Assembly (NCBI GenBank): GCA_040219735.1
Contig: JAVJRX010000129.1
Source: Coleofasciculus sp. G1-WW12-02
Lineage (GTDB): Bacteria; Cyanobacteriota; Cyanobacteriia; Cyanobacteriales; Coleofasciculaceae
Direction: 5' to 3' (one strand)
Length of the DNA stretch: 24,000 nt
Both the position numbers and the translations under genes were made by a program. The notes beneath the pieces are model-generated. The model made no database searches. It was not told the origin of the DNA and saw only the letters and a program-made list of their open reading frames with translations. Positions 4,020 through 17,824 of the stretch are shown piece by piece. Numbering within the stretch: position 1 is the first letter of the stretch; each line of letters begins with the position of its first letter.

Positions 4020-6152
4020 TTAAAATGGGTTAATCGTTATCGAAAAATATACGCCATTTTCTTGCCAGGTATTATCCTCGGACTCAACAGAAATTAAGGG
4101 AATCCCCCAGTCTAAGCGAGCGGTGATGCGATCGCCTTGTTGCCATTGTAGTCCCAACCCCAGAGCCGCCAAACTGCTCGGGTTAGGAGCGTCTATCTCG
4201 CCGTTATTCCAGGTTGTGCCAACATCCACAAAGGGAGTCACCTGTAAAACACCATCCCACTCAGGAATGCGTAAAATGGGCAGCCGCACCTCGGCTGAAG
4301 CAAAGGCGCCATTATCAGTGAGTCGAATATCTTGGCGATAGCCGCGTACACTCCCTTGACCCCCTAAACCATACTGCTCCACAGGTAACAAGTCTTGAGC
4401 GGCTAGTTGAATGTCACCGCGAAGCACCAGTAATGTATCTGGGGCTAAAAGTCTTACCCACTGGGTTTGACCCCGCCAGGAAAAGAAGTGACTATCAGGC
4501 GCATCATCGTTGACTGTGGCATTAAAGACACCCAGACCTACATTAAACTGAGAGCGTAGGGCAAAGACTTCCCTCGCCCCTCGTTTAGTCCACTCTTGAA
4601 AGAATCGCAGGGCTGAAACTCGGATGCGCCCATCCTCATCAGCACCCAATGAAGGAAAACCAACTTCTTCTCCTATTAAGTCTTCTAAGAAAACGGTTTT
4701 TGTATTGCGTCGAGAGGCGGTTAAACCCACTGCGAATTCCTGGGTTGGTGTTTCCAGGAGGGGTTGACGAAATGTGAGGTCAAAACTGGTTGAGTCGGAT
4801 TGGATATCAAGAAAGTTAAATGGATCTTCAATAATCTCGCTGGAGGTGTTGCTAAAGCTAAAGCTAACCGTGCCATTACGCGGATTCACGGGTAGGGCGT
4901 AGTTAAATTCAATCTCATCGCTACCATCGGTATTGGTATAGCTGAGGGTTACGCCATCGCCGAATCCGAGTAAGTTGGCTTGAGTTATGGAAGCCCCGCG
5001 CCGGAAGCTACCCACACTGGGGGAACGCCCATTGTTGGCAACGAGTTGGTAACTCCAGGTGTTGGCTTCGATAATATCGACGATGAGTAAACTGGTACCG
5101 GGTCCAGAACCGGTCGAGAGTTCAGCCGAGATATTTTCGATGAGGGGATCGAGCTGCAAAAGACGTAGGGATTCGAGTAAATGCGGTACATTGAGGGGTT
5201 TGGGATTAGCGACAGCAATACGCGATCGCACGTAGTTGGGACGCAGGCGGCGAAGTCCATTCACCTGAATCTCTTCGATTCCGCCTTCGACAATTTCAAT
5301 AGTGACGGTATCCTGGTTTAGGGATTGAGGTGGAATGAAGGCACCGGATGTAGCATAGCCGTTGTTTACGTATAACTGGGTGATGGCAGTTCTGGCATTT
5401 AAGAGTTCAGCAAAGGTAATCGGGCGATTAGTAAACTCAGCTATCTCTTCGGCTAACTGTTCATCACTAAATGCTGTATTGCCGATAAATTCAAAATTTT
5501 TCACCGTAATTTGGTCTTGAGTGACACCCTCTGGCGTCTCCGGCGTTGTCGGTGTTAATTGAGGGGATTCTAGAAGCTGTTCTGGGGGGGGTAATGTAGG
5601 AGACGGTGTGGCTTCTGGCAGCCTAGAGGGAGGCGGTGGCTCAATGTCTTGAGGCGGAGGCAGTTCAGGAATTGAGGGACTCTCTCGAGGAGTCGTGCGA
5701 TCAGGAATTTGAGTGACGTAGAGGGGCAAGTGTTGAGTGTTGAGTGTTGAGATATGCCATGGCGCGTCTTTCGGGGCGGGTTTCATGAGTCTCGTTTCTT
5801 CCTTTACCCCGATGTGACTAAACCCGCCCCGACTGAGTTTTGAATGGGTGATCTCATGTCCGTCTAAACGGTTACCATTGTCTTCTACCTTCCCTTGTAC
5901 CCTGTGCCCTGTGCCCTCTGCCTTCGTGGAGCCTTCTGTCTTTTCTTCCTCAATTGTTCTCGATAAATAGTTTAGGTGTTCAGGGTGAGGTAAGACTGGA
6001 GACAAGGACGTCTTGATTGAGGCTTTAGCGTTTGTGGAGATAGGCAGATTTTGAGCGTTTACCGAGGGAGTTAGCCATAACACCGCTGACAATGTTGCTA
6101 TAGAGGTGAATAGAATTTGCCCGTTGGACTCTACACCAATCATATTGTTCAT
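4020..6152 (-). CDS. ShlB/FhaC/HecB-family (TpsB) outer-membrane hemolysin-activation/secretion protein with POTRA domain
   Basis: 710-aa ORF. It has a signal-peptide-like N-terminus (..LSAVLWLTPSVNA/Q), a Pro-rich linker and a POTRA_2-like segment (ITVKNFEFIGNTAFSDEQL...IEIVEGGIEEIQV). A long beta-barrel region follows and ends in a terminal aromatic residue (..ITINPF). Confidence 0.85.
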   Translation of the reverse strand: MNNMIGVESNGQILFTSIATLSAVLWLTPSVNAQNLPISTNAKASIKTSLSPVLPHPEHLNYLSRTIEEEKTEGSTKAEGTGHRVQGKVEDNGNRLDGHEITHSKLSRGGFSHIGVKEETRLMKPAPKDAPWHISTLNTQHLPLYVTQIPDRTTPRESPSIPELPPPQDIEPPPPSRLPEATPSPTLPPPEQLLESPQLTPTTPETPEGVTQDQITVKNFEFIGNTAFSDEQLAEEIAEFTNRPITFAELLNARTAITQLYVNNGYATSGAFIPPQSLNQDTVTIEIVEGGIEEIQVNGLRRLRPNYVRSRIAVANPKPLNVPHLLESLRLLQLDPLIENISAELSTGSGPGTSLLIVDIIEANTWSYQLVANNGRSPSVGSFRRGASITQANLLGFGDGVTLSYTNTDGSDEIEFNYALPVNPRNGTVSFSFSNTSSEIIEDPFNFLDIQSDSTSFDLTFRQPLLETPTQEFAVGLTASRRNTKTVFLEDLIGEEVGFPSLGADEDGRIRVSALRFFQEWTKRGAREVFALRSQFNVGLGVFNATVNDDAPDSHFFSWRGQTQWVRLLAPDTLLVLRGDIQLAAQDLLPVEQYGLGGQGSVRGYRQDIRLTDNGAFASAEVRLPILRIPEWDGVLQVTPFVDVGTTWNNGEIDAPNPSSLAALGLGLQWQQGDRITARLDWGIPLISVESEDNTWQENGVYFSITINPF
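5773..5830. repeat. 58-bp MITE-like inverted-repeat element (GGGGCGGGTTT...AAACCCGCCCC) lying inside the TpsB coding sequence
   Basis: The 11-nt termini are perfect reverse complements. Related copies lie at 10514-10570 and 18762-18819, sharing an internal ..cc(c/a)gatg(t/g)(g/a)actAAACCCGCCC(C).. arm. This copy is flanked by a gccatggc-centred palindrome (about 5749-5770) and a (GTGTTGA)x3 heptamer run (5729-5751). Confidence 0.8.
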
Positions 6153-10214: not shown

Positions 10215-10304
10215 ATGGCTTCTCCCTTTCCCGGCATGAATCCTTATTTAGAAAATCCGGCATTTTGGTCAGAAGTACATAATCAATGGATAATTAATAA
10301 TTGA
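10215..10304 (+). pseudogene. N-terminal remnant of a DUF4058-family gene
   Basis: The ATG at 10215 opens MASPFPGMNPYLENPAFWSEVHNQWIINN*, which is the highly conserved N-terminus of cyanobacterial DUF4058 proteins (PFPGM.PYLE.P..W..VH). It is cut off after 29 codons by an AT-rich heptamer-repeat tract (aattgat-like). Confidence 0.6.
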
Positions 10305-10513
10305 TAATTGACAATTGATTAATTGGGTCTAAGACCTCTTCGTTTACGAAGAAATTAAAAAAGATTTTCCTTAATTTCAATCCTCTTCTTTTAAGGAGAG
10401 GTCATTATCCATTGTCAATTTGTGAACCCCCTCCCGTCCCCCTTGAGATCCCCCTCCCGTCCCCCTTAAAAAGGGGGAGACCTGAAGAGTCTGGTCTGGC
10501 ACATAAATGTGTA

Positions 10514-11164: not shown

Positions 11165-11494
11165 CTATTCGACAGAAACGGATTTCACATCTACCGTAGC
11201 TTCCGGTGTCGTACTGGTTTCTTCCGTGACGATTCCCGCTTGGCGAGATTTAGCCAAATCAATCAACCACTGCGACATCTCAGACACCAGCAGCGTCAGC
11301 ACGACGACATCATCAATTTGCCCGACAATTGGAATAAAGTCTGGGGCGATATCAATGGGACTAAACACGTAAAGGAGAGTCCCTAAGACTATCCACCAAC
11401 GGTATTTAGGATTGCGAACCGCGTTACGATACCAGTTATATATGGATTGGATTGAAAAATTATTCATCAGTTTTTCCCGACAGCTACCTTTCAT
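11165..11494 (-). CDS. DUF1232 (YkvA-family) small membrane protein
   Basis: 109-aa ORF with WWIVLGTLLYVFSPIDIAPDFIPIVGQIDDVVV, the DUF1232 signature (SP.D.iPDfiP..G..DD). It lies 131 nt downstream of the TIR-WD40 gene on the same strand. Confidence 0.7.
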   Translation of the reverse strand: MKGSCREKLMNNFSIQSIYNWYRNAVRNPKYRWWIVLGTLLYVFSPIDIAPDFIPIVGQIDDVVVLTLLVSEMSQWLIDLAKSRQAGIVTEETSTTPEATVDVKSVSVE

Positions 11495-11625
11495 CTTGCC
11501 AAATTCATCCCGGAATCTCTATGGGGATAACCCACCTGTTCAGGTGCAGAACTTACACCTACTGACGTGAGGGGGAGAGTTTGATGGGATTGGGATTTGC
11601 TGGGGATGATGGGAATCGCGCTTTG

Positions 11626-14600
11626 TTACTGTTTTACATCATCACACAGAAACTTATCGCTATCTGGGGCGCTGTGCTTCAAATAATCCCCAACCCAATC
11701 ACAGGCTCTATGCATGAGTGCATCTAGCGTTAAATCCTCTAAATTCCACAGCTTCACTGTTTTATCCCCACTAGCAGAAGCAATCGTCTTTCCATCTGGG
11801 CTGAACACTACGCTATAGACTGCTTCTTCATGACCAGAAAGACTGTGGAGAAGTTCACCTTCTCGATTCCACAACCTGACTGTTTTATCATTACTAGCAG
11901 AAGCAATGGTGTTTCCATCTGGGCTGAACACTACCCTCCCGACTGTTTCTTCATGACCAGAAAGAATGTGGAGAAGTTCACCTTCTCGATTCCACAACCT
12001 GACTGTTGTATCTGTACTAGCAGAAGCAATCGTCTTTCCATCTGGGTTGAACACTACCCTCCAGACTGTTTCTTCATGACCAGAAAGAATGTGGAGAAGT
12101 TCACCTTCTCGATTCCACAACCTGACTGTTCCATCCCCACTAGCAGAAGCAATCGTCTTTCCATCTGGGCTGAACACTACACTGATGACTGTTTCTTCAT
12201 GACCAGAAAGAGTGTGGAGAAGTTCACCTTCTCGATTCCACAACCTGACTGTTTTATCCCAACTAGCAGAAGCAATCGTCTTTCCATCTGGGCTGAACAC
12301 TACCCTTATGATTGATGCTTCATGACCAGAAAGAATGTGGAGAAGTTCACCTTCTCGATTCCACAACCTGACTGTTTTATCCCCACTAGCAGAAGCAATC
12401 GTCTTTCCATCTGGGCTGAACACTACGCTCCAGACCTCGTCTTCATGACCAGAAAGAATGTGGAGAAGTTCACCTTCTCGATTCCACAACCTGACTGTTT
12501 TATCAGAACTAGCAGAAGCAATCGTCTTTCCATCTGGGCTGAACAATACGCTATTGACCCATGCTTCATGACCAGAAAGACTGTGGAGAAGTTCACCTTC
12601 TCGATTCCACAACCTGAGTGTTTTATCCCTACTAGCAGAAGCAATCGTGTTTCCATCTGGGCTAAACACTACGCTACTGACCAATTCTTCATGACCAGAA
12701 AGGGTGTGGAGAAGTTCACCTTGTTGATTCCACAACCTGACTGTTTTATCCCCACTAGCAGAAGCAATCGTCTTTCCATCTGGGCTGAACACTACGCTCC
12801 AGACTGATGCTTCATGACCAGAAAGGGTGTGGAGAAGTTCACCTTTTCGATTCCACAACCTGACTGTTTTATCCCAACTAGCAGAAGCAATCGTCTTTCC
12901 ATCTGGGCTGAACACTACCCTCCAGACTGTTTCTTCATGACCAGAAAGACTGTGGAGAAGTTCACCGGCTCGATTCCACAACCTGACTGTATCCCCACTA
13001 GCAGAAGCAATCGTATTTCCGTCTGGGCTAAACACTACCCTCCAGACTGGTTCTTCATGACCAGAAAGAGTGTGGAGAAGTTCACCTTCTCGATTCCACA
13101 ACCTGACTGTATTATCCCAACTAGCAGAAGCAATCGTCTTTCCATCGGGGCTGAACACTACGCTATTGACTGGTTCTTCATGACCAGAAAGACTGTGGAG
13201 AAGTTCACCTTCTCGATTCCACAACCTGACTGTTTTATCACCACTAGCAGAAGCAATCGTCTTTCCATCTGGGCTGAACACTACCCTCCAGACTGTTTCT
13301 TCATGACCAGAAAGGGTGTGGAGAAGTTCACCTTCTCGATTCCACAACCTGACTGTTTTATCACCACTAGCAGAAGCAATCGTCTTTCCATCTGGGCTGA
13401 ACACTACGCTAATGACTCGTTCTTCATGACCAGAAAGAATGTGGAGAAGTTCACCTTCTCGATTCCACAACCTGACTGTTTTATCATAACTAGCAGAAGC
13501 AATCGTGTTTCCATCTGGGCTGAACACTACGCTATAGACCAAATCTTCATGACCAGAAAGGGTGTGGAGAAGTTCACCTTTTCGATTCCACAACCTGACT
13601 GTTTTATCCCCACTAGCAGAAGCAATCGTCTTGCCATCTGGGCTGAACACTACGCTATAGACTGGTTCTTCATGACCAGTTAATCGATTCCGCTCTCTAA
13701 CGCTGTCGTCATAAATTACCGTCTGCAAGGTTTGATTAATTCGCCGCTTAATCTCCAATTTTTCTGAATTTGATTCTTTGAATAGCTCTCCTGCCCGAAT
13801 CCCTTCAATCAGAGCATCTAATTTCAGATTTGACTTAACCAATATCTGGGAAAAGCGGCTTAACGCATCAATTTGACCTGCCATCCTTTTTTCTGATTCC
13901 CGCCACTGGACTACCGCCAAGCTTGTTAAACCCATCAACCCAATCAAAGCAGTAACCGATACAACTATAATTCGGCGAGCTTGTTTAAGTTCTCGTTTAC
14001 GGCGACTTTCTTCTTGATGCAAATGAGTCTCTTTCGCCGCTATACTTGCTTCAATAAATGCGTTTTGCAAGTCGGTGGCTGAAGGCTTTTTCCGGCTTTG
14101 ATTCGTTTCCTGTAACCAGTCTTGAGCAATTGCTAATTCATTTCCCCGCAACAACAAATCATCACTTTTATCCTTCTGCTGCCACTCCAGCGCTCGCTGT
14201 GACCATTTGCTATGCAGGCGAACGTGTTCTCTATCCGTATCTAAAGCCCTGACCAATTGATTGAAATTGGCATTAAACTCCCGTTGATTCTGATTGAAAT
14301 CAATCCACTGGATCTGGGCTAACTCTGGATGTAAATTTGCCGAGTCTACGGGTTGATGTAATACGGTGATAAAACGCTTATTTAAACTGGCTGCATAGTC
14401 CACCTCAGCAGCACAGTACGGTGAATTAACCGAACGCGGTGAAAGAATAAACAAAAAGTTATCACAGGCTTTAATCCCTAACTGAATCTCCTGCTGAAAG
14501 TCACTCCCCGATGCAATACTTTCCTGGTCAAACCATGTCGTTTTTCCTTGCATCTGTAATGCATCATTTAGCTTTCTCGCCAAGTCTGAGTCAGCACGGG

Positions 14601-15930
14601 AATAAGAGATAAACACATCCAGCGACTCTAACGGCGGTTGTCGCAGGCTTTCAGTAATGAATTCTTCTTGTAAGGCGGTGGGTGGATGGTGTGTCCTTTT
14701 TTGTGCTACCTTTAACCACGCTTCAGCACTGCGTAAGTTATAGCCTCGTAGCAGAATACTAGGATTTTGGTATTGCTCTTTCCACTTCAGCGCTTTGGTC
14801 AGTAAAATCTTATGCTCTCGATAATAAGCCTCATCCTGATGTAGAATCCGTAATAACTGACTTTCATCAAGCCGATAATCCTCTTCCTTTACATTATCGG
14901 TGAGGTCAATATATTGTAATCCCTGTAGCGCGGGTGGGATTTGTTCCACTGGTGTTTCCCGTACCAGTACCGGAATAATCCGCTTGTGCAGTGATACCGC
15001 TAAGTCTAATTCTTGTTGACAGTAGGTTGAGTTTACGGAGTCGGGTGAAAGGAGATACACTAAGTTATCCGCCTGTTCAATTCCCCGTCTAATCGCGTCC
15101 TCAAAGGATTCTCCACTTTGAATATCTGTTGTATTTGTCCAAACGGTAATGCTTTCTCGCCTTAAACTGCGACGAATCTTTTCCATCGTCGCCTTATCTA
15201 CATCGCTGTAGGCAAGAACCACCTGAGTCATCAAGTTATTGGCATTTTTGATACTTTCGGTGATGTATTCGCAATGTAAGTCCGTAGGAAGACAAGGCGG
15301 TTGTTCATCTTTAAACCGTACCTTTAACCAAGCTTCTGCCTGTTGTCTCTCTGCGCCAACTAATAGCCAACGATGTTGCTTTTGATTCCTCTCCCATTCC
15401 AATGCTTTGGCTAGAAAACGGGTATGTTGTTCTACATAGTCGGAATGAGAACGGAGTAATTTTACTAAGTCAGCTAAGGATGCTTCAAAATTGTTTACCC
15501 CCTCCTGAAAATACACCCAGTTGAGTTTACGGATTGTTGGGTGCATGTTTTGATAGCTTTCATGTAACCCCTTTGCTTTATAAGCTTCCCACTCTGACTG
15601 AGTACCATTAGGATTACGCTGCTGCCAGGTTTCCTGGCTAATTCCCATAACGTGTAATATAGGAATAATCCGTTTATTCAGTTTAATCGCCAGTTCAATT
15701 TCTTTTAGGCAATAGGGAGAGTTGACGGAATGAGGAGAAATGATAAATAGGAAATGACTAGCTTTTTCGATGCCATCGTCAATTTGATTCTGGAAGTCTA
15801 CGGCTAGGGGAATATCATTGAAGTCAAACCAGACGTTAAACTTTTGTGCAGTTAGACGGGATTGCAGGGTTTGAGCGAAAGCTTTACTATCGGCTCGTCC
15901 GTAAGAGATAAAGGCATCAAAAATTGTCAT
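11626..15930 (-). CDS. Triple TIR-domain / single-TM / 16x WD40-repeat protein (1434 aa)
   Basis: Three TIR-like modules lie at about aa 3-140, 235-345 and 437-546. They carry the motifs DAFISYGRADS and DVFISYSRADS, plus SP.SVNS.YC..E with Glu77, Glu307 and Glu509. Each module is followed by a helical ALEW..LLRG..L..AE.WL linker. A hydrophobic helix spans aa 653-676 (nt 13903-13974). Sixteen repeats of the form LSGHE..V..VVFSPDG.TIASAS.DKTVRLWNREGELLH. run from aa 750. I saw no P-loop. Confidence 0.9.
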   Translation of the reverse strand: MTIFDAFISYGRADSKAFAQTLQSRLTAQKFNVWFDFNDIPLAVDFQNQIDDGIEKASHFLFIISPHSVNSPYCLKEIELAIKLNKRIIPILHVMGISQETWQQRNPNGTQSEWEAYKAKGLHESYQNMHPTIRKLNWVYFQEGVNNFEASLADLVKLLRSHSDYVEQHTRFLAKALEWERNQKQHRWLLVGAERQQAEAWLKVRFKDEQPPCLPTDLHCEYITESIKNANNLMTQVVLAYSDVDKATMEKIRRSLRRESITVWTNTTDIQSGESFEDAIRRGIEQADNLVYLLSPDSVNSTYCQQELDLAVSLHKRIIPVLVRETPVEQIPPALQGLQYIDLTDNVKEEDYRLDESQLLRILHQDEAYYREHKILLTKALKWKEQYQNPSILLRGYNLRSAEAWLKVAQKRTHHPPTALQEEFITESLRQPPLESLDVFISYSRADSDLARKLNDALQMQGKTTWFDQESIASGSDFQQEIQLGIKACDNFLFILSPRSVNSPYCAAEVDYAASLNKRFITVLHQPVDSANLHPELAQIQWIDFNQNQREFNANFNQLVRALDTDREHVRLHSKWSQRALEWQQKDKSDDLLLRGNELAIAQDWLQETNQSRKKPSATDLQNAFIEASIAAKETHLHQEESRRKRELKQARRIIVVSVTALIGLMGLTSLAVVQWRESEKRMAGQIDALSRFSQILVKSNLKLDALIEGIRAGELFKESNSEKLEIKRRINQTLQTVIYDDSVRERNRLTGHEEPVYSVVFSPDGKTIASASGDKTVRLWNRKGELLHTLSGHEDLVYSVVFSPDGNTIASASYDKTVRLWNREGELLHILSGHEERVISVVFSPDGKTIASASGDKTVRLWNREGELLHTLSGHEETVWRVVFSPDGKTIASASGDKTVRLWNREGELLHSLSGHEEPVNSVVFSPDGKTIASASWDNTVRLWNREGELLHTLSGHEEPVWRVVFSPDGNTIASASGDTVRLWNRAGELLHSLSGHEETVWRVVFSPDGKTIASASWDKTVRLWNRKGELLHTLSGHEASVWSVVFSPDGKTIASASGDKTVRLWNQQGELLHTLSGHEELVSSVVFSPDGNTIASASRDKTLRLWNREGELLHSLSGHEAWVNSVLFSPDGKTIASASSDKTVRLWNREGELLHILSGHEDEVWSVVFSPDGKTIASASGDKTVRLWNREGELLHILSGHEASIIRVVFSPDGKTIASASWDKTVRLWNREGELLHTLSGHEETVISVVFSPDGKTIASASGDGTVRLWNREGELLHILSGHEETVWRVVFNPDGKTIASASTDTTVRLWNREGELLHILSGHEETVGRVVFSPDGNTIASASNDKTVRLWNREGELLHSLSGHEEAVYSVVFSPDGKTIASASGDKTVKLWNLEDLTLDALMHRACDWVGDYLKHSAPDSDKFLCDDVKQ
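11743..13683 (-). repeat. Tandem array of 16 x 123-bp (41-codon) WD40-coding units, highly similar at DNA level
   Basis: The block catgaccagaaag..tgtggagaagttcacc..tcgattccacaacctgactgt..actagcagaagcaatcgt.tttccatctgggctgaacactac recurs with a 123-bp period. The plus-strand antisense ORFs restart at 11830, 12322 and 12814, which is 4 x 123 apart. One unit carries a 3-bp deletion (GDTV instead of GDKTV, at 12988-12993). Confidence 0.95.
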
Positions 15931-16611: not shown

Positions 16612-16837
16612 TTTTCTTCCCCATCTCCCAGACGCTTCAAAAGCGCGTCTCTACACCCCTTAACCGAACCGTATTGAGACAGTTGCCAAATCGCCACCCG
16701 TCTCTCCCGAATCCCGCGCTCTAGCCGCGAAAATTAATCAACCTCTTTGCAAGCGGCGATAAATCCCTAGAATTGGAGTGGCTTGCATTTTAGCAAAGAC
16801 AATTATACTTAGCAATCAAGGGAGGTTGAGAACCGAT

Positions 16838-17824
16838 ATGGATATTGTTGCGGTTATTGAAAAGGGCGGAATCGCCATGTGGCCCCTGTTAGGGCTTTCG
16901 ATCCTAGCAGTTGGTACAATTTTTGAGCGACTCTGGTTTTGGGCGGGAATCCTCTTGAAACAAGAGGAAATCGTCAATCGGGTGCTGGATGCAGGCGCTC
17001 AAAACTGGCAGGTGGCTAGAGAAATCGCGATGAAATCGCGGCGACAACCCGTGGGACGATATTTATATGCTCCCCTACGCCTGATCAGCCCAGAACCTGA
17101 ATTATTCCGCTTAGCTTTAGAAGGGGCGGCTGATGACGAGTTAGCGGCGATGCGGCGCGGCGATAAGCTATTAGAAGCGGTGATTGCGCTGTCTCCTCTG
17201 TTGGGATTACTGGGAACGGTACTCGGTTTAATCAACTCATTAGGCTCAATTACCATTGATCAACTAGGTACAGCCTCCACCGCTGGGGTAACGTTGGGAA
17301 TCGGCGAAGCGCTGATTAGTACCGCGACAGGACTGATTATTGCAATTACCAGTTTGGCATTTTATCGACTGTTTCAAGCCTTTTGGTTTAACCAAGTCAA
17401 AATTTTCCGTAAAGCGGGGACAGAGTTGGAATTACTGTATCGCCAAGATTGGTTACAAGCCGAAGATAGTGATCAAGTGATGAGCGATACCCTCCAAGAC
17501 CATACCATTAACGTTTACCAAGAGAGTTTTGAAGTACCCCAACCCCCCACTTCACTTCCCAAACCCCGATCCAAGCAGAAGCAGCCGCCAAAGCAGGATG
17601 ATCAGGTTTTACCGGCACAAAGCGATCGCACTCCCGTCGCCAATGCTAAAACAAACCAAGACGAACAGCTTTCCCCAGACAATCCTCAAGTCCCCTCAAG
17701 CGATCGCACTCCCGTCGCCAATGCTAAAACAAACCAAGACGATCCGCTTTCCCCAGACAATCCTCAACTCCCCCAAAGCGATCGCACTCCTGTCTCCAAC
17801 CCTCAAGGAAACCCAGAAAATTAG
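16838..17824 (+). CDS. exbB: MotA/TolQ/ExbB-family proton-channel protein with a ~110-aa repetitive C-terminal tail
   Basis: The core is typical of the family: [35 protein letters not shown]..., [15 protein letters not shown] and [18 protein letters not shown] prefer the ATG at 16838, which has a GGGAGG 11 nt upstream, over the track's GTG at 16778. It is followed by an ExbD gene. Confidence 0.85.
17621..17824 (+). repeat. 78-bp (26-codon) tandem repeat, about 2.6 copies, inside the exbB 3' region
   Basis: Units start at 17621, 17699 and 17777 and encode [14 protein letters not shown](E/D)(Q/P)LSPDNPQ(V/L)P(S/Q). Each unit begins with a HIP1 site (aGCGATCGCact). The first two units are nearly identical at DNA level. 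Confidence 0.9.

Follow-up and report, generated by a model that had tools for sequence, protein, structure and literature searches.

Why does a single cyanobacterial gene carry sixteen nearly identical copies of the same protein unit, and why are the differences between those copies confined to a few codons? The gene lies in a stretch of 24,000 nucleotides (the window) of contig JAVJRX010000129.1 from the assembly of Coleofasciculus sp. G1-WW12-02 (GCA_040219735.1). Its single open reading frame (ORF) on the minus strand encodes three TIR domains, one predicted transmembrane (TM) helix and an array of WD40 blades. In fungal allorecognition receptors, recognition is the task of near-identical WD40 arrays whose contact residues vary. 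Such arrays have been noted, yet not explained, in cyanobacteria. The reading preferred here, to which a probability of roughly 0.6 is given, is that the array serves a single-pass membrane receptor of this filamentous cyanobacterium as its ligand-recognition domain. The locus also provides a clean test case for the coexistence of repeat homogenisation and site-specific diversification.

Tandem Repeats Finder detects a single strong tandem array at 11743-13679 (period 123, 15.8 copies, 91% matches, score 3055), and the Pfam WD40 model (PF00400) matches 16 stretches of the translation (E = 2.2e-212, 679 bits against a cut-off of 27). The two methods agree, and they confirm the repeat array of 16 units that was reported in a preliminary description of this DNA; all of the units lie in one ORF. 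Fifteen units are 123 bp (41 amino acids) long and one, unit 6, has 120 bp (40 amino acids). All 16 open with L[ST]GHE in the ORF translation. Mean pairwise nucleotide identity between units is 0.896 for all 16 and 0.913 for units 2-15, with a maximum of 0.959, and divergence within the array is greatest in the two terminal units. At the amino-acid level the blades are on average 83% identical, compared with about 90% for nucleotides. No two units are the same, and exact repeats within the array extend to at most 91 nt. The internal nucleotide identity of the array (0.897) ranks second among 69 scorable related arrays. An in-frame 3-bp deletion, previously placed at 12988-12993, is real: unit 6 reads GGG GAT ACA, and the junction left by its missing codon 27 falls between 12991 and 12990, inside that range.

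The opposite strand is also open through the array. Three plus-strand ORFs run antisense to it, each beginning MTRK.VEKFTFSIPQPDC. These ORFs are most likely not genes, but a by-product of a stop-free antisense frame that has been copied 16 times.

Amino-acid diversity among the units is concentrated at nine positions. Entropy is highest at position 7 (2.73 bits), followed by positions 9 (2.31), 25 (2.20) and 41 (1.81), and is lower at positions 6 (1.20), 35 (1.19), 27 (1.04), 10 (0.95) and 18 (0.81). The remaining positions are mostly variable only in the two edge units. Position 27 is occupied by K, N, G or T, position 35 by E, K, A or Q (mostly E), and position 18 by K or N. The variable sites 6/7, 9/10, 18, 25 and 41 had already been recognized in the preliminary description, which overlooked 27 and 35. 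The clustering is not expected by chance: the 30 variable nucleotide columns of units 2-15 occupy 18 codons, compared with 23.4 under random placement (P ~0.001).

Synonymous and amino-acid-changing differences per site (pS and pN) and the ratio of the corresponding rates (dN/dS) were obtained by Nei-Gojobori counting for units 2-15 only. The nine variable codons have a pS of 0.35 and a pN of 0.35, with a dN/dS of 0.98, and the top five codons (6, 7, 9, 25 and 27) give a dN/dS of 1.27. For the 32 scaffold codons the corresponding values are 0.029, 0.010 and 0.33, and for all 41 codons together dN/dS is 1.09. Amino-acid-changing differences are about 35-fold more frequent at variable codons than at scaffold codons. 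Diversifying selection had been proposed for these positions, with per-codon dN/dS as the way to check it; ratios of 0.98 and 1.27 do not bear the proposal out, and positive selection at the variable codons is unproven.

The top face of a WD40 propeller is made up of the connections between strands D and A and between strands B and C, and its bottom of the A-B and C-D loops. An AlphaFold model built from a 49-sequence alignment (A1) has a mean predicted local distance difference test score (pLDDT) of 91.6 and a predicted template modelling score of 0.66; a single-sequence model with a pLDDT of 50 was discarded. In the retained model, DSSP assigns residues 8-13 of each unit to strand A, 19-24 to B, 28 or 29 to 33 to C and 38-41 to D. 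The loops comprise residues 2-7 (D-A), 14-18 (A-B), 25-27 (the B-C turn) and 34-37 (C-D). In the last unit, strand D is replaced by a helix. The Asp-His-Ser/Thr-Trp tetrad residues H4, S22/S24, D26 and W32 are invariant in the units. All nine variable sites map to loops or strand ends of the model: 6 and 7 belong to the D-A loop, 9 and 10 to the first part of strand A and 25 and 27 to the B-C turn, and 41 ends strand D beside the D-A loop. Positions 18 and 35 sit in bottom loops and vary little. The assignment of sites to the top or bottom face combines this secondary structure with canonical WD40 topology.

An experimentally defined rule locates WD40 contact hotspots from a V-R1-R2-V pattern and the tetrad Asp (Wu et al. 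2012, PMC3419727). Applied to V8-x9-x10-V11 and D26 of the unit, this rule designates position 7 as R1-2, position 9 as R1 and position 25 as D-1. These hotspots are exactly the three highest-entropy codons of the array, and positions 6 and 27 flank them on the top face. The earlier claim that variation marks the top, ligand-binding face of the propeller thus stands for positions 7, 9 and 25, along with 6 and 27, and fails for 18 and 35. A similar pattern is known from Podospora, where HNWD codons 7, 9, 25 and 27 are positively selected and codons 8 and 26 are under purifying selection (Paoletti et al. 2007, PMC1805685). In the array, codons 7, 9, 25 and 27 are variable and 8 and 26 are conserved, which are the same numbers in the unit register adopted here.

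Variation at loops does not have to reflect recognition. Purifying selection at the level of the fold could preserve the scaffold while the variable codons simply drift. A dN/dS of about 1 is the neutral expectation, and the location of all nine sites in loops or strand ends agrees with such drift. However, protein-level purifying selection fails to account for the silent-site identity of the scaffold (pS 0.03), and the other loop residues (14-17, 34 and 36) barely vary. The sites that do vary are exactly the experimentally defined contact positions. At positions 7, 9 and 25 taken together, 14 of 48 residues are aromatic. Within the family, the same sites recur in independent arrays: positions 6, 7, 9, 25 and 27 are variable in seven other homogenised ones. 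Unconstrained loops are therefore a distinctly unlikely explanation.

The history of the scaffold can be followed through orthologues. Five lineages share it, and the N-terminal halves of their genes differ among them by a dS of 0.26-0.30. In the internal units, scaffold pS is 0.015-0.083 across genomes and 0.03-0.076 within genomes. The consensus scaffolds have 0 synonymous differences where about 5.5 would be expected (Poisson P ~0.004 per comparison). The nine variable codons are saturated, with a pN of 0.30-0.44 within and between genomes alike.

Near-identical units with few silent scaffold differences could also be produced by recent amplification of one blade, the copies of which are now diverging without continuing homogenisation. 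The fastest surface positions would then be the first to change. This model of Pereira and Lupas has been published for the closely related WRAP propellers (PMC9218822), and an orthologue of the present gene that has an in-frame stop resembles the 'disrupted propellers' described there. Alternating amplification and decay would also fit the wider family, in which the internal nucleotide identity of arrays forms a continuum between 0.42 and 0.90 and the majority of members carry 14 WD units. Nevertheless, a single scaffold without any fixed synonymous difference is found in five lineages that are well separated elsewhere in the gene, at the same time as their variable codons are saturated. Silent variants are enriched at the variable codons, occurring at six of nine compared with four of 32 scaffold codons (P = 0.003). 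For example, ATT, ATA and ATC are all used for Ile at position 9. Many pairs of variable codons display all four allele combinations, in violation of the four-gamete test. Finally, the edge units are more diverged than the rest and have their nearest relatives at the edges of orthologous arrays: unit 1 most closely resembles the first units in orthologues L003 and L004, and the best match of unit 16 is the final unit of L002. The shared scaffold, the silent variants, the four-gamete pairs and the edge-unit matches argue against independent recent amplification in each lineage. Recent amplification without continuing homogenisation is rather unlikely.

Instead, the data fit repeated homogenisation of a scaffold whose contact codons are kept different and are reshuffled. 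We infer that homogenisation proceeds by recombination between units. Because no lineage-specific scaffold changes are present, this model also requires that lineages exchange array DNA or that silent sites are constrained. Unit 14 of the array studied here and unit 6 of L002 share a rare F-N-PDG variant. Flanking sequence differs between lineages by about 10% at the DNA level, and the locus is a mosaic. The TIR modules are 88-94% identical to those of orthologues, and the DUF1232 gene and spacer downstream match L001 at 99% identity. The 93-bp C-terminal tail, the most diverged part of the gene, is 82-84% identical to L001, L004 and L077 and 91% identical to L002. This abrupt change of divergence within 11165-11718, seen in comparisons with L001, L002, L004 and L077, suggests that recombination broke the sequence at the 3' edge of the array.

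The gene is found at the syntenic locus in six other Coleofasciculus assemblies. L001 (Coleofasciculus chthonoplastes F2-STO-03) has 14 units and an in-frame TGA, L002 has seven units, L077 eight and L004 two. L076 has about four units and is frameshifted, and the contig of L003 stops within the array. The TGA of L001, at 12691-12693, changes codon 27 of unit 4 from GGA and is followed by ten in-frame units and a normal tail. It represents either a very recent inactivation or a consensus error of a metagenome-assembled genome (MAG). Identical arrays in related strains had been named in the preliminary description as the outcome that would speak against rapid evolution; instead, the variable residues differ throughout between orthologous arrays. 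As for the repeat-number polymorphism that it expected, unit counts do differ (2, 7, 8, ~4 and 14 compared with 16). However, the contig names of the orthologues (k141_, NODE_) indicate apparent short-read MAGs in which arrays may collapse, which makes these counts unreliable and leaves the polymorphism unproven. A metagenome scan for additional alleles recovered one close orthologue, which ends ahead of the array.

The same orthologues, including the broken contig and the frameshift, raise the prospect that the unit number, unit order or array length reported here originates from mis-assembled repeats, a problem that is warned of in PMC9218822. Several features argue otherwise. The 16 units are all distinct, and with repeats of at most 91 nt the array is unambiguous for long reads or for assembly with k >91. 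The ORF is intact across all units, and units 1 and 16 are nearest to the edge units of orthologues. An assembly artefact is very unlikely. The array as a feature is certainly real, and doubt is limited to the exact count.

Targeted hypermutation would be another route to such confined variation. A diversity-generating retroelement, for example, could write the variable codons from a template copy. Multicellular cyanobacteria are known to use these elements on putative sensors (PMC10907252), and the tight restriction of changes to a few codons, with silent variants enriched there too, is what such a process might leave behind. However, no reverse transcriptase gene is present within the 24 kb, no further copy of the unit is present outside the array, and the changes are not adenine-specific, as all four bases vary across the three codon positions. 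The retroelement or template hypothesis was rejected on these grounds and is scarcely credible.

How the blades are divided into propellers can be judged from the model. All 16 blades are modelled as folded with high pLDDT, and the sole dip (63-86) coincides with unit 6, the deletion unit. Unit 6 is also where 14-blade homologues have a two-unit gap in the alignment, and it might mark a boundary between propellers. The closest solved structure is 2YMU, a 14-blade WRAP propeller (phmmer E = 7.4e-247, 571 residues, a single one-residue gap). In Foldseek searches, 5MZH (ODA16), which we take to be an eight-bladed propeller, is aligned across 329 columns with a root-mean-square deviation of 5.0 and a TM-score of 0.62. 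Seven-bladed WRAP-T designs have 59-66% identity and TM-scores of 0.64-0.76, and 2YMU has a TM-score of 0.38. WRAP blades are able to form rings of seven, eight or nine blades (PMC6805158). Because all 16 blades have high pLDDT, two seven-bladed rings with two unfolded blades are disfavored. The choice posed earlier, between two eight-bladed propellers and two seven-bladed ones with extra blades, is thereby narrowed, and the eight-bladed template fits better. An 8+8 arrangement in two propellers is the best guess that the model provides.

The remainder of the protein indicates what the array may be connected to. Pfam TIR_2 matches three stretches of the ORF (E = 2.5e-82 and, in a second search, 1e-83). 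Each TIR module consists of a TIR domain and a helical Trp-rich spacer of ~90 amino acids, and the copies are 33-39% identical to one another. The motif S-P-x-S-V-N-S-x-Y-C-x-x-E is retained in all three. By comparison with the motif of plant and bacterial TIR domains, its Glu is presumably the catalytic residue. Module 3 aligns to the TIR chains of SARM1 and of the CRISPR-associated protein Cat1 in the PDB (E = 1e-5). In the phmmer alignments, the module Glu pairs with the Glu of Cat1 WCWDE, whereas the SARM1 alignment positions it differently. In amino acids 1-749, Pfam detects only TIR families and no STAND ATPase, and there is no Pfam match to NACHT or NB-ARC in the protein.

Between the TIR modules and the array lies the only segment of the ORF with a Kyte-Doolittle value >1.6 (maximum 2.26; Table 1). 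Exactly one hydrophobic segment precedes the array in 49 of 52 TIR-WD homologues. The 15 residues before this helix contain on average 4.8 Lys and Arg residues, compared with 2.6 after it, and 48 of 49 homologues have the larger number before it. According to the positive-inside rule, the flank of a helix that is rich in these residues is cytoplasmic. This rule and the observed bias would place the TIR domains in the cytoplasm and the array on the other side of the membrane. The model starts after the first 54 residues of the linker that separates helix and array; it contains a helix at model residues 4-13 (amino acids 734-743) and then coil. The two Cys residues of the C-terminal tail are each conserved in at least 90% of alignment A1.

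Paralogues and more distant arrays offer comparable clues. CHASE2 is a known extracytoplasmic sensor domain, and it occurs in place of the array in the triple-TIR paralogues P0208, P0234, P0153, P0206 and P0213. In P0208, for example, three TIR domains are followed by CHASE2 at 649-992 (E = 8e-54). The single helix, the charge bias and the CHASE2 paralogues together lead to the reading of an outward-facing single-pass receptor, and they suggest that the array faces the periplasm or thylakoid lumen. Of the 120 proteins whose arrays are most similar, 99 also have one strongly hydrophobic segment ahead of the array, at a median of 114 residues from the first blade, and the charge bias has the same direction in 69 of those proteins versus 12. 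These proteins are mostly annotated as 'AAA-like domain-containing' or nSTAND1. Membrane-anchored, perhaps outward-facing WD40 arrays may therefore constitute a general cyanobacterial class.

Table 1. Coordinates of the TIR-WD40 gene, its parts and other features in the window
Feature	Position	Strand	Details
Whole gene, three TIR - TM - 16 WD40 (1434 aa)	11626-15930	minus	single ORF, ATG to stop; Pfam
TIR module 1 (aa 1-232)	15235-15930	minus	Pfam TIR at aa 4-87; motif SPHSVNSPYCLKE with Glu
TIR module 2 (aa 233-433)	14632-15234	minus	ThsB_TIR/TIR_2 at aa 245-323; motif SPDSVNSTYCQQE with Glu
TIR module 3 (aa 434-650)	13981-14631	minus	TIR_2 full model, aa 439-560; motif SPRSVNSPYCAAE
Predicted single TM helix (aa 653-676, IIVVSVTALIGLMGLTSLAVVQW)	13903-13974	minus	RRKRELKQARR just before
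Linker between helix and array (aa 677-749)	13684-13902	minus	FDAL..AIRAG..L motif conserved in alignment A1
Array of 16 WD40 blades (aa 750-1404)	11719-13683	minus	translation, Pfam WD40, AlphaFold model
Starts of units 1-8	13683, 13560, 13437, 13314, 13191, 13068, 12948, 12825	minus	
Starts of units 9-16	12702, 12579, 12456, 12333, 12210, 12087, 11964, 11841	minus	
Unit 6 (120 bp)	12949-13068	minus	codon 27 deleted in B-C turn
C-terminal tail (aa 1405-1434) and stop	11626-11718	minus	Cys1410, Cys1429; modelled as helix
Antisense ORF, 161 aa	11830-12315	plus	
Antisense ORF, 161 aa	12322-12807	plus	
Antisense ORF, 289 aa	12814-13683	plus	
ShlB/FhaC-type two-partner-secretion transporter	4020-6152	minus	POTRA_2 and ShlB
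Intergenic tandem repeat	10280-10325		AT-rich AATTGAT, 5.7 copies
Intergenic tandem repeat	10420-10467		C-rich 23 bp, 2.1 copies, CCCCCTCCCGT
ExbB-like gene	16778-17824	plus	MotA/ExbB family
Tandem repeat in ExbB-like gene	17618-17799		78 bp, 2.3 copies, 91% identity

A receptor of this type might operate as follows. The 16 blades would form two propellers, probably of eight blades each, and their top faces would set binding specificity through 16 distinct sets of residues in which W, Y and R are common. Recombination between units, by gene conversion or unequal exchange, would keep the scaffold uniform. The same process would reassort the variable patches and alter unit number, while selection would maintain differences at the contact codons. 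To judge from the charge bias, the TIR domains would be cytoplasmic and the array would lie across the membrane, in either the periplasm or the thylakoid lumen. Ligand binding on that side could cluster receptors and bring the TIR domains together. The TIR domains would then cleave NAD+ or signal, as all three keep the Glu of S-x-x-(Y/W)-C-x-x-E. Such a receptor might serve in defence or in self/non-self discrimination. A broader version of this scheme can be put forward tentatively. Proteins consisting of a cytoplasmic domain, a transmembrane helix and a WD40 array could form a large cyanobacterial class of surface receptors for patterns or kin, in which, in the present case, a hypervariable periplasmic double propeller would detect foreign or non-self molecules and switch three TIR domains across the membrane. 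Array exchange would keep the scaffold identical even in diverged lineages and maintain a shared pool of blades.

Several observations weigh against the receptor reading. The gene is not in a defence island; its neighbours are housekeeping genes, and none of them is conserved outside Coleofasciculus. PADLOC returns mainly TIR-domain matches along with matches to repeat models, and no complete defence system. NCBIfam matches are to TIR only and fall under the cut-offs, with ThcB4 scoring 98.6 bits against 220. Neutral concerted evolution predicts fixed scaffold differences that are specific to each lineage, and zero are seen. Positions 18 and 35 are variable even though the model puts them in bottom loops. 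The variable codons have a Nei-Gojobori dN/dS near 1 and not clearly higher, and the count of 16 units is provisional. The topology, a disulfide, NADase activity and a ligand are predictions from sequence. Overall, the earlier interpretation of a fast-evolving recognition module keeps its propeller face, its fungal parallel and its differing orthologues. Selection and copy-number polymorphism are its unproven parts, and the protein is not an NLR.

Arrays of this general type have been described before. Cyanobacterial highly repetitive WD40 proteins with high internal identity and diversity at hotspots are known (PMC5587647, Hu et al. 2017), and a median blade identity >60% has served to define them (PMC9218822). 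With 83% amino-acid identity between blades and its diversity at hotspots 7, 9 and 25, the array qualifies as highly repetitive. Cyanobacterial arrays with variable hotspots are thus already described. The closest example is WRAP of Nostoc punctiforme (Npun_R6612, 2YMU), which has the same blade family (58% identity by Foldseek) and a 41-residue unit. Both proteins have cyanobacterial hosts and orthologues disrupted by stops or frameshifts (PMC9218822). However, there are 16 blades here and 14 in WRAP, and three TIR domains and a transmembrane helix are present here in contrast to the STAND ATPase of WRAP. The units of the array also differ from one another much more than those of WRAP, for which 10 point mutations are reported, and their scaffold is common to diverged lineages rather than independently amplified.

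The HET-E, HET-D and NWD proteins of Podospora anserina (Paoletti et al. 2007, Chevanne et al. 2010) resemble the array in having a near-identical scaffold, repeat-number differences from allele to allele and a suggested reassortment of variable patches. In contrast to these proteins, the protein studied here is bacterial, lacks NACHT or any other NTPase and lacks a HET domain, and its array is probably extracytoplasmic. It has no paralogue with the same scaffold, and positive selection is unproven for it. The preliminary description had likened the array to HET-E/NWD receptors. This likeness holds for how the array evolves and not for family membership, given that three TIR domains and a transmembrane helix take the place of an NTPase.

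The Toll-like receptors of animals have a similar layout to the one predicted here, with a repeat sensor outside, a single helix and TIR inside. However, the sensor consists of WD40 propellers and not of a leucine-rich-repeat solenoid, the TIR domains are N-terminal, which inverts the order, and there are three of them, of TIR_2 type. The resemblance is one of design only, with demonstrated homology confined to the TIR fold. Bacterial TIR effectors such as Thoeris ThsB, TIR-SAVED, Cat1 and AbTir share TIR_2/ThsB_TIR matches and the Glu motif with this protein. In contrast to these effectors, it has three tandem TIR domains fused to their own sensor, and its neighbourhood lacks ThsA, SAVED, CRISPR and any other partner gene.

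In the open-access papers searched, no description was found of this Toll-like layout in a bacterium or of the TIR-TM-WD40 architecture. The same is true of the fusion of three TIR domains via a membrane helix, of the predicted outward orientation shared by a large cyanobacterial WD40 class and of a repeat scaffold that is identical at silent sites between otherwise diverged lineages. If the topology is true, the gene would encode an outward-facing, fast-diversifying bacterial repeat receptor that is wired to TIR signalling without an NTPase switch. If the class reading is true, cyanobacteria would possess a bacterial counterpart of Toll-like receptors made of WD40 blades.

Relatives of the gene appear to be a large cyanobacterial family, although a look-up of the exact protein finds no record. 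A search of species-representative genomes with the N-terminal 749 amino acids finds 76 loci, all cyanobacterial, and the best matches are Coleofasciculus MAGs with 88-92% identity. Protein databases contain 1249 relatives at E <=1e-20; all named matches listed and all loci fetched are cyanobacterial. Named relatives are annotated merely as 'TIR domain-containing protein' or 'WD40 repeat protein'. Domain composition varies within the family. In P0154 a triple TIR is followed by two WD40 repeats with TPR repeats behind them, P0155 has matches to these same families, and P0191 has five TIR_2 domains in tandem. Only orthologues share the array scaffold, with 81-84% array identity. All other matches are at most 67% identical, and there is consequently no sign of unit exchange between paralogous loci. 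In other genera (L017, L021, L028, L032, L035 and L039), two or three same-strand tandem genes with 14-unit WD40 arrays adjoin the TIR-WD gene.

One flank of the gene encodes LeuA, NYN, rhodanese, an ShlB-type transporter, a metallo-beta-lactamase-fold protein, a pyrophosphatase, DUF2470, DUF554, a cupin and DUF1232. The other flank encodes ExbB, ExbD, a class II fumarase/aspartase, DUF362 and a HAS-barrel protein. DUF1232, ExbB, ExbD and the cupin were considered as conserved operon partners and rejected, as they are conserved at orthologous loci in Coleofasciculus only and not across the family. Rfam and tRNA scans of the window give no matches. No obvious large TpsA gene accompanies the two-partner-secretion transporter within the window. 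Tandem repeats are also found outside the array. Two are intergenic, located between the DUF554 and cupin genes. Another lies within the ExbB-like gene, where it encodes a repeated Pro/Gln-rich segment in the C-terminal tail of the protein.

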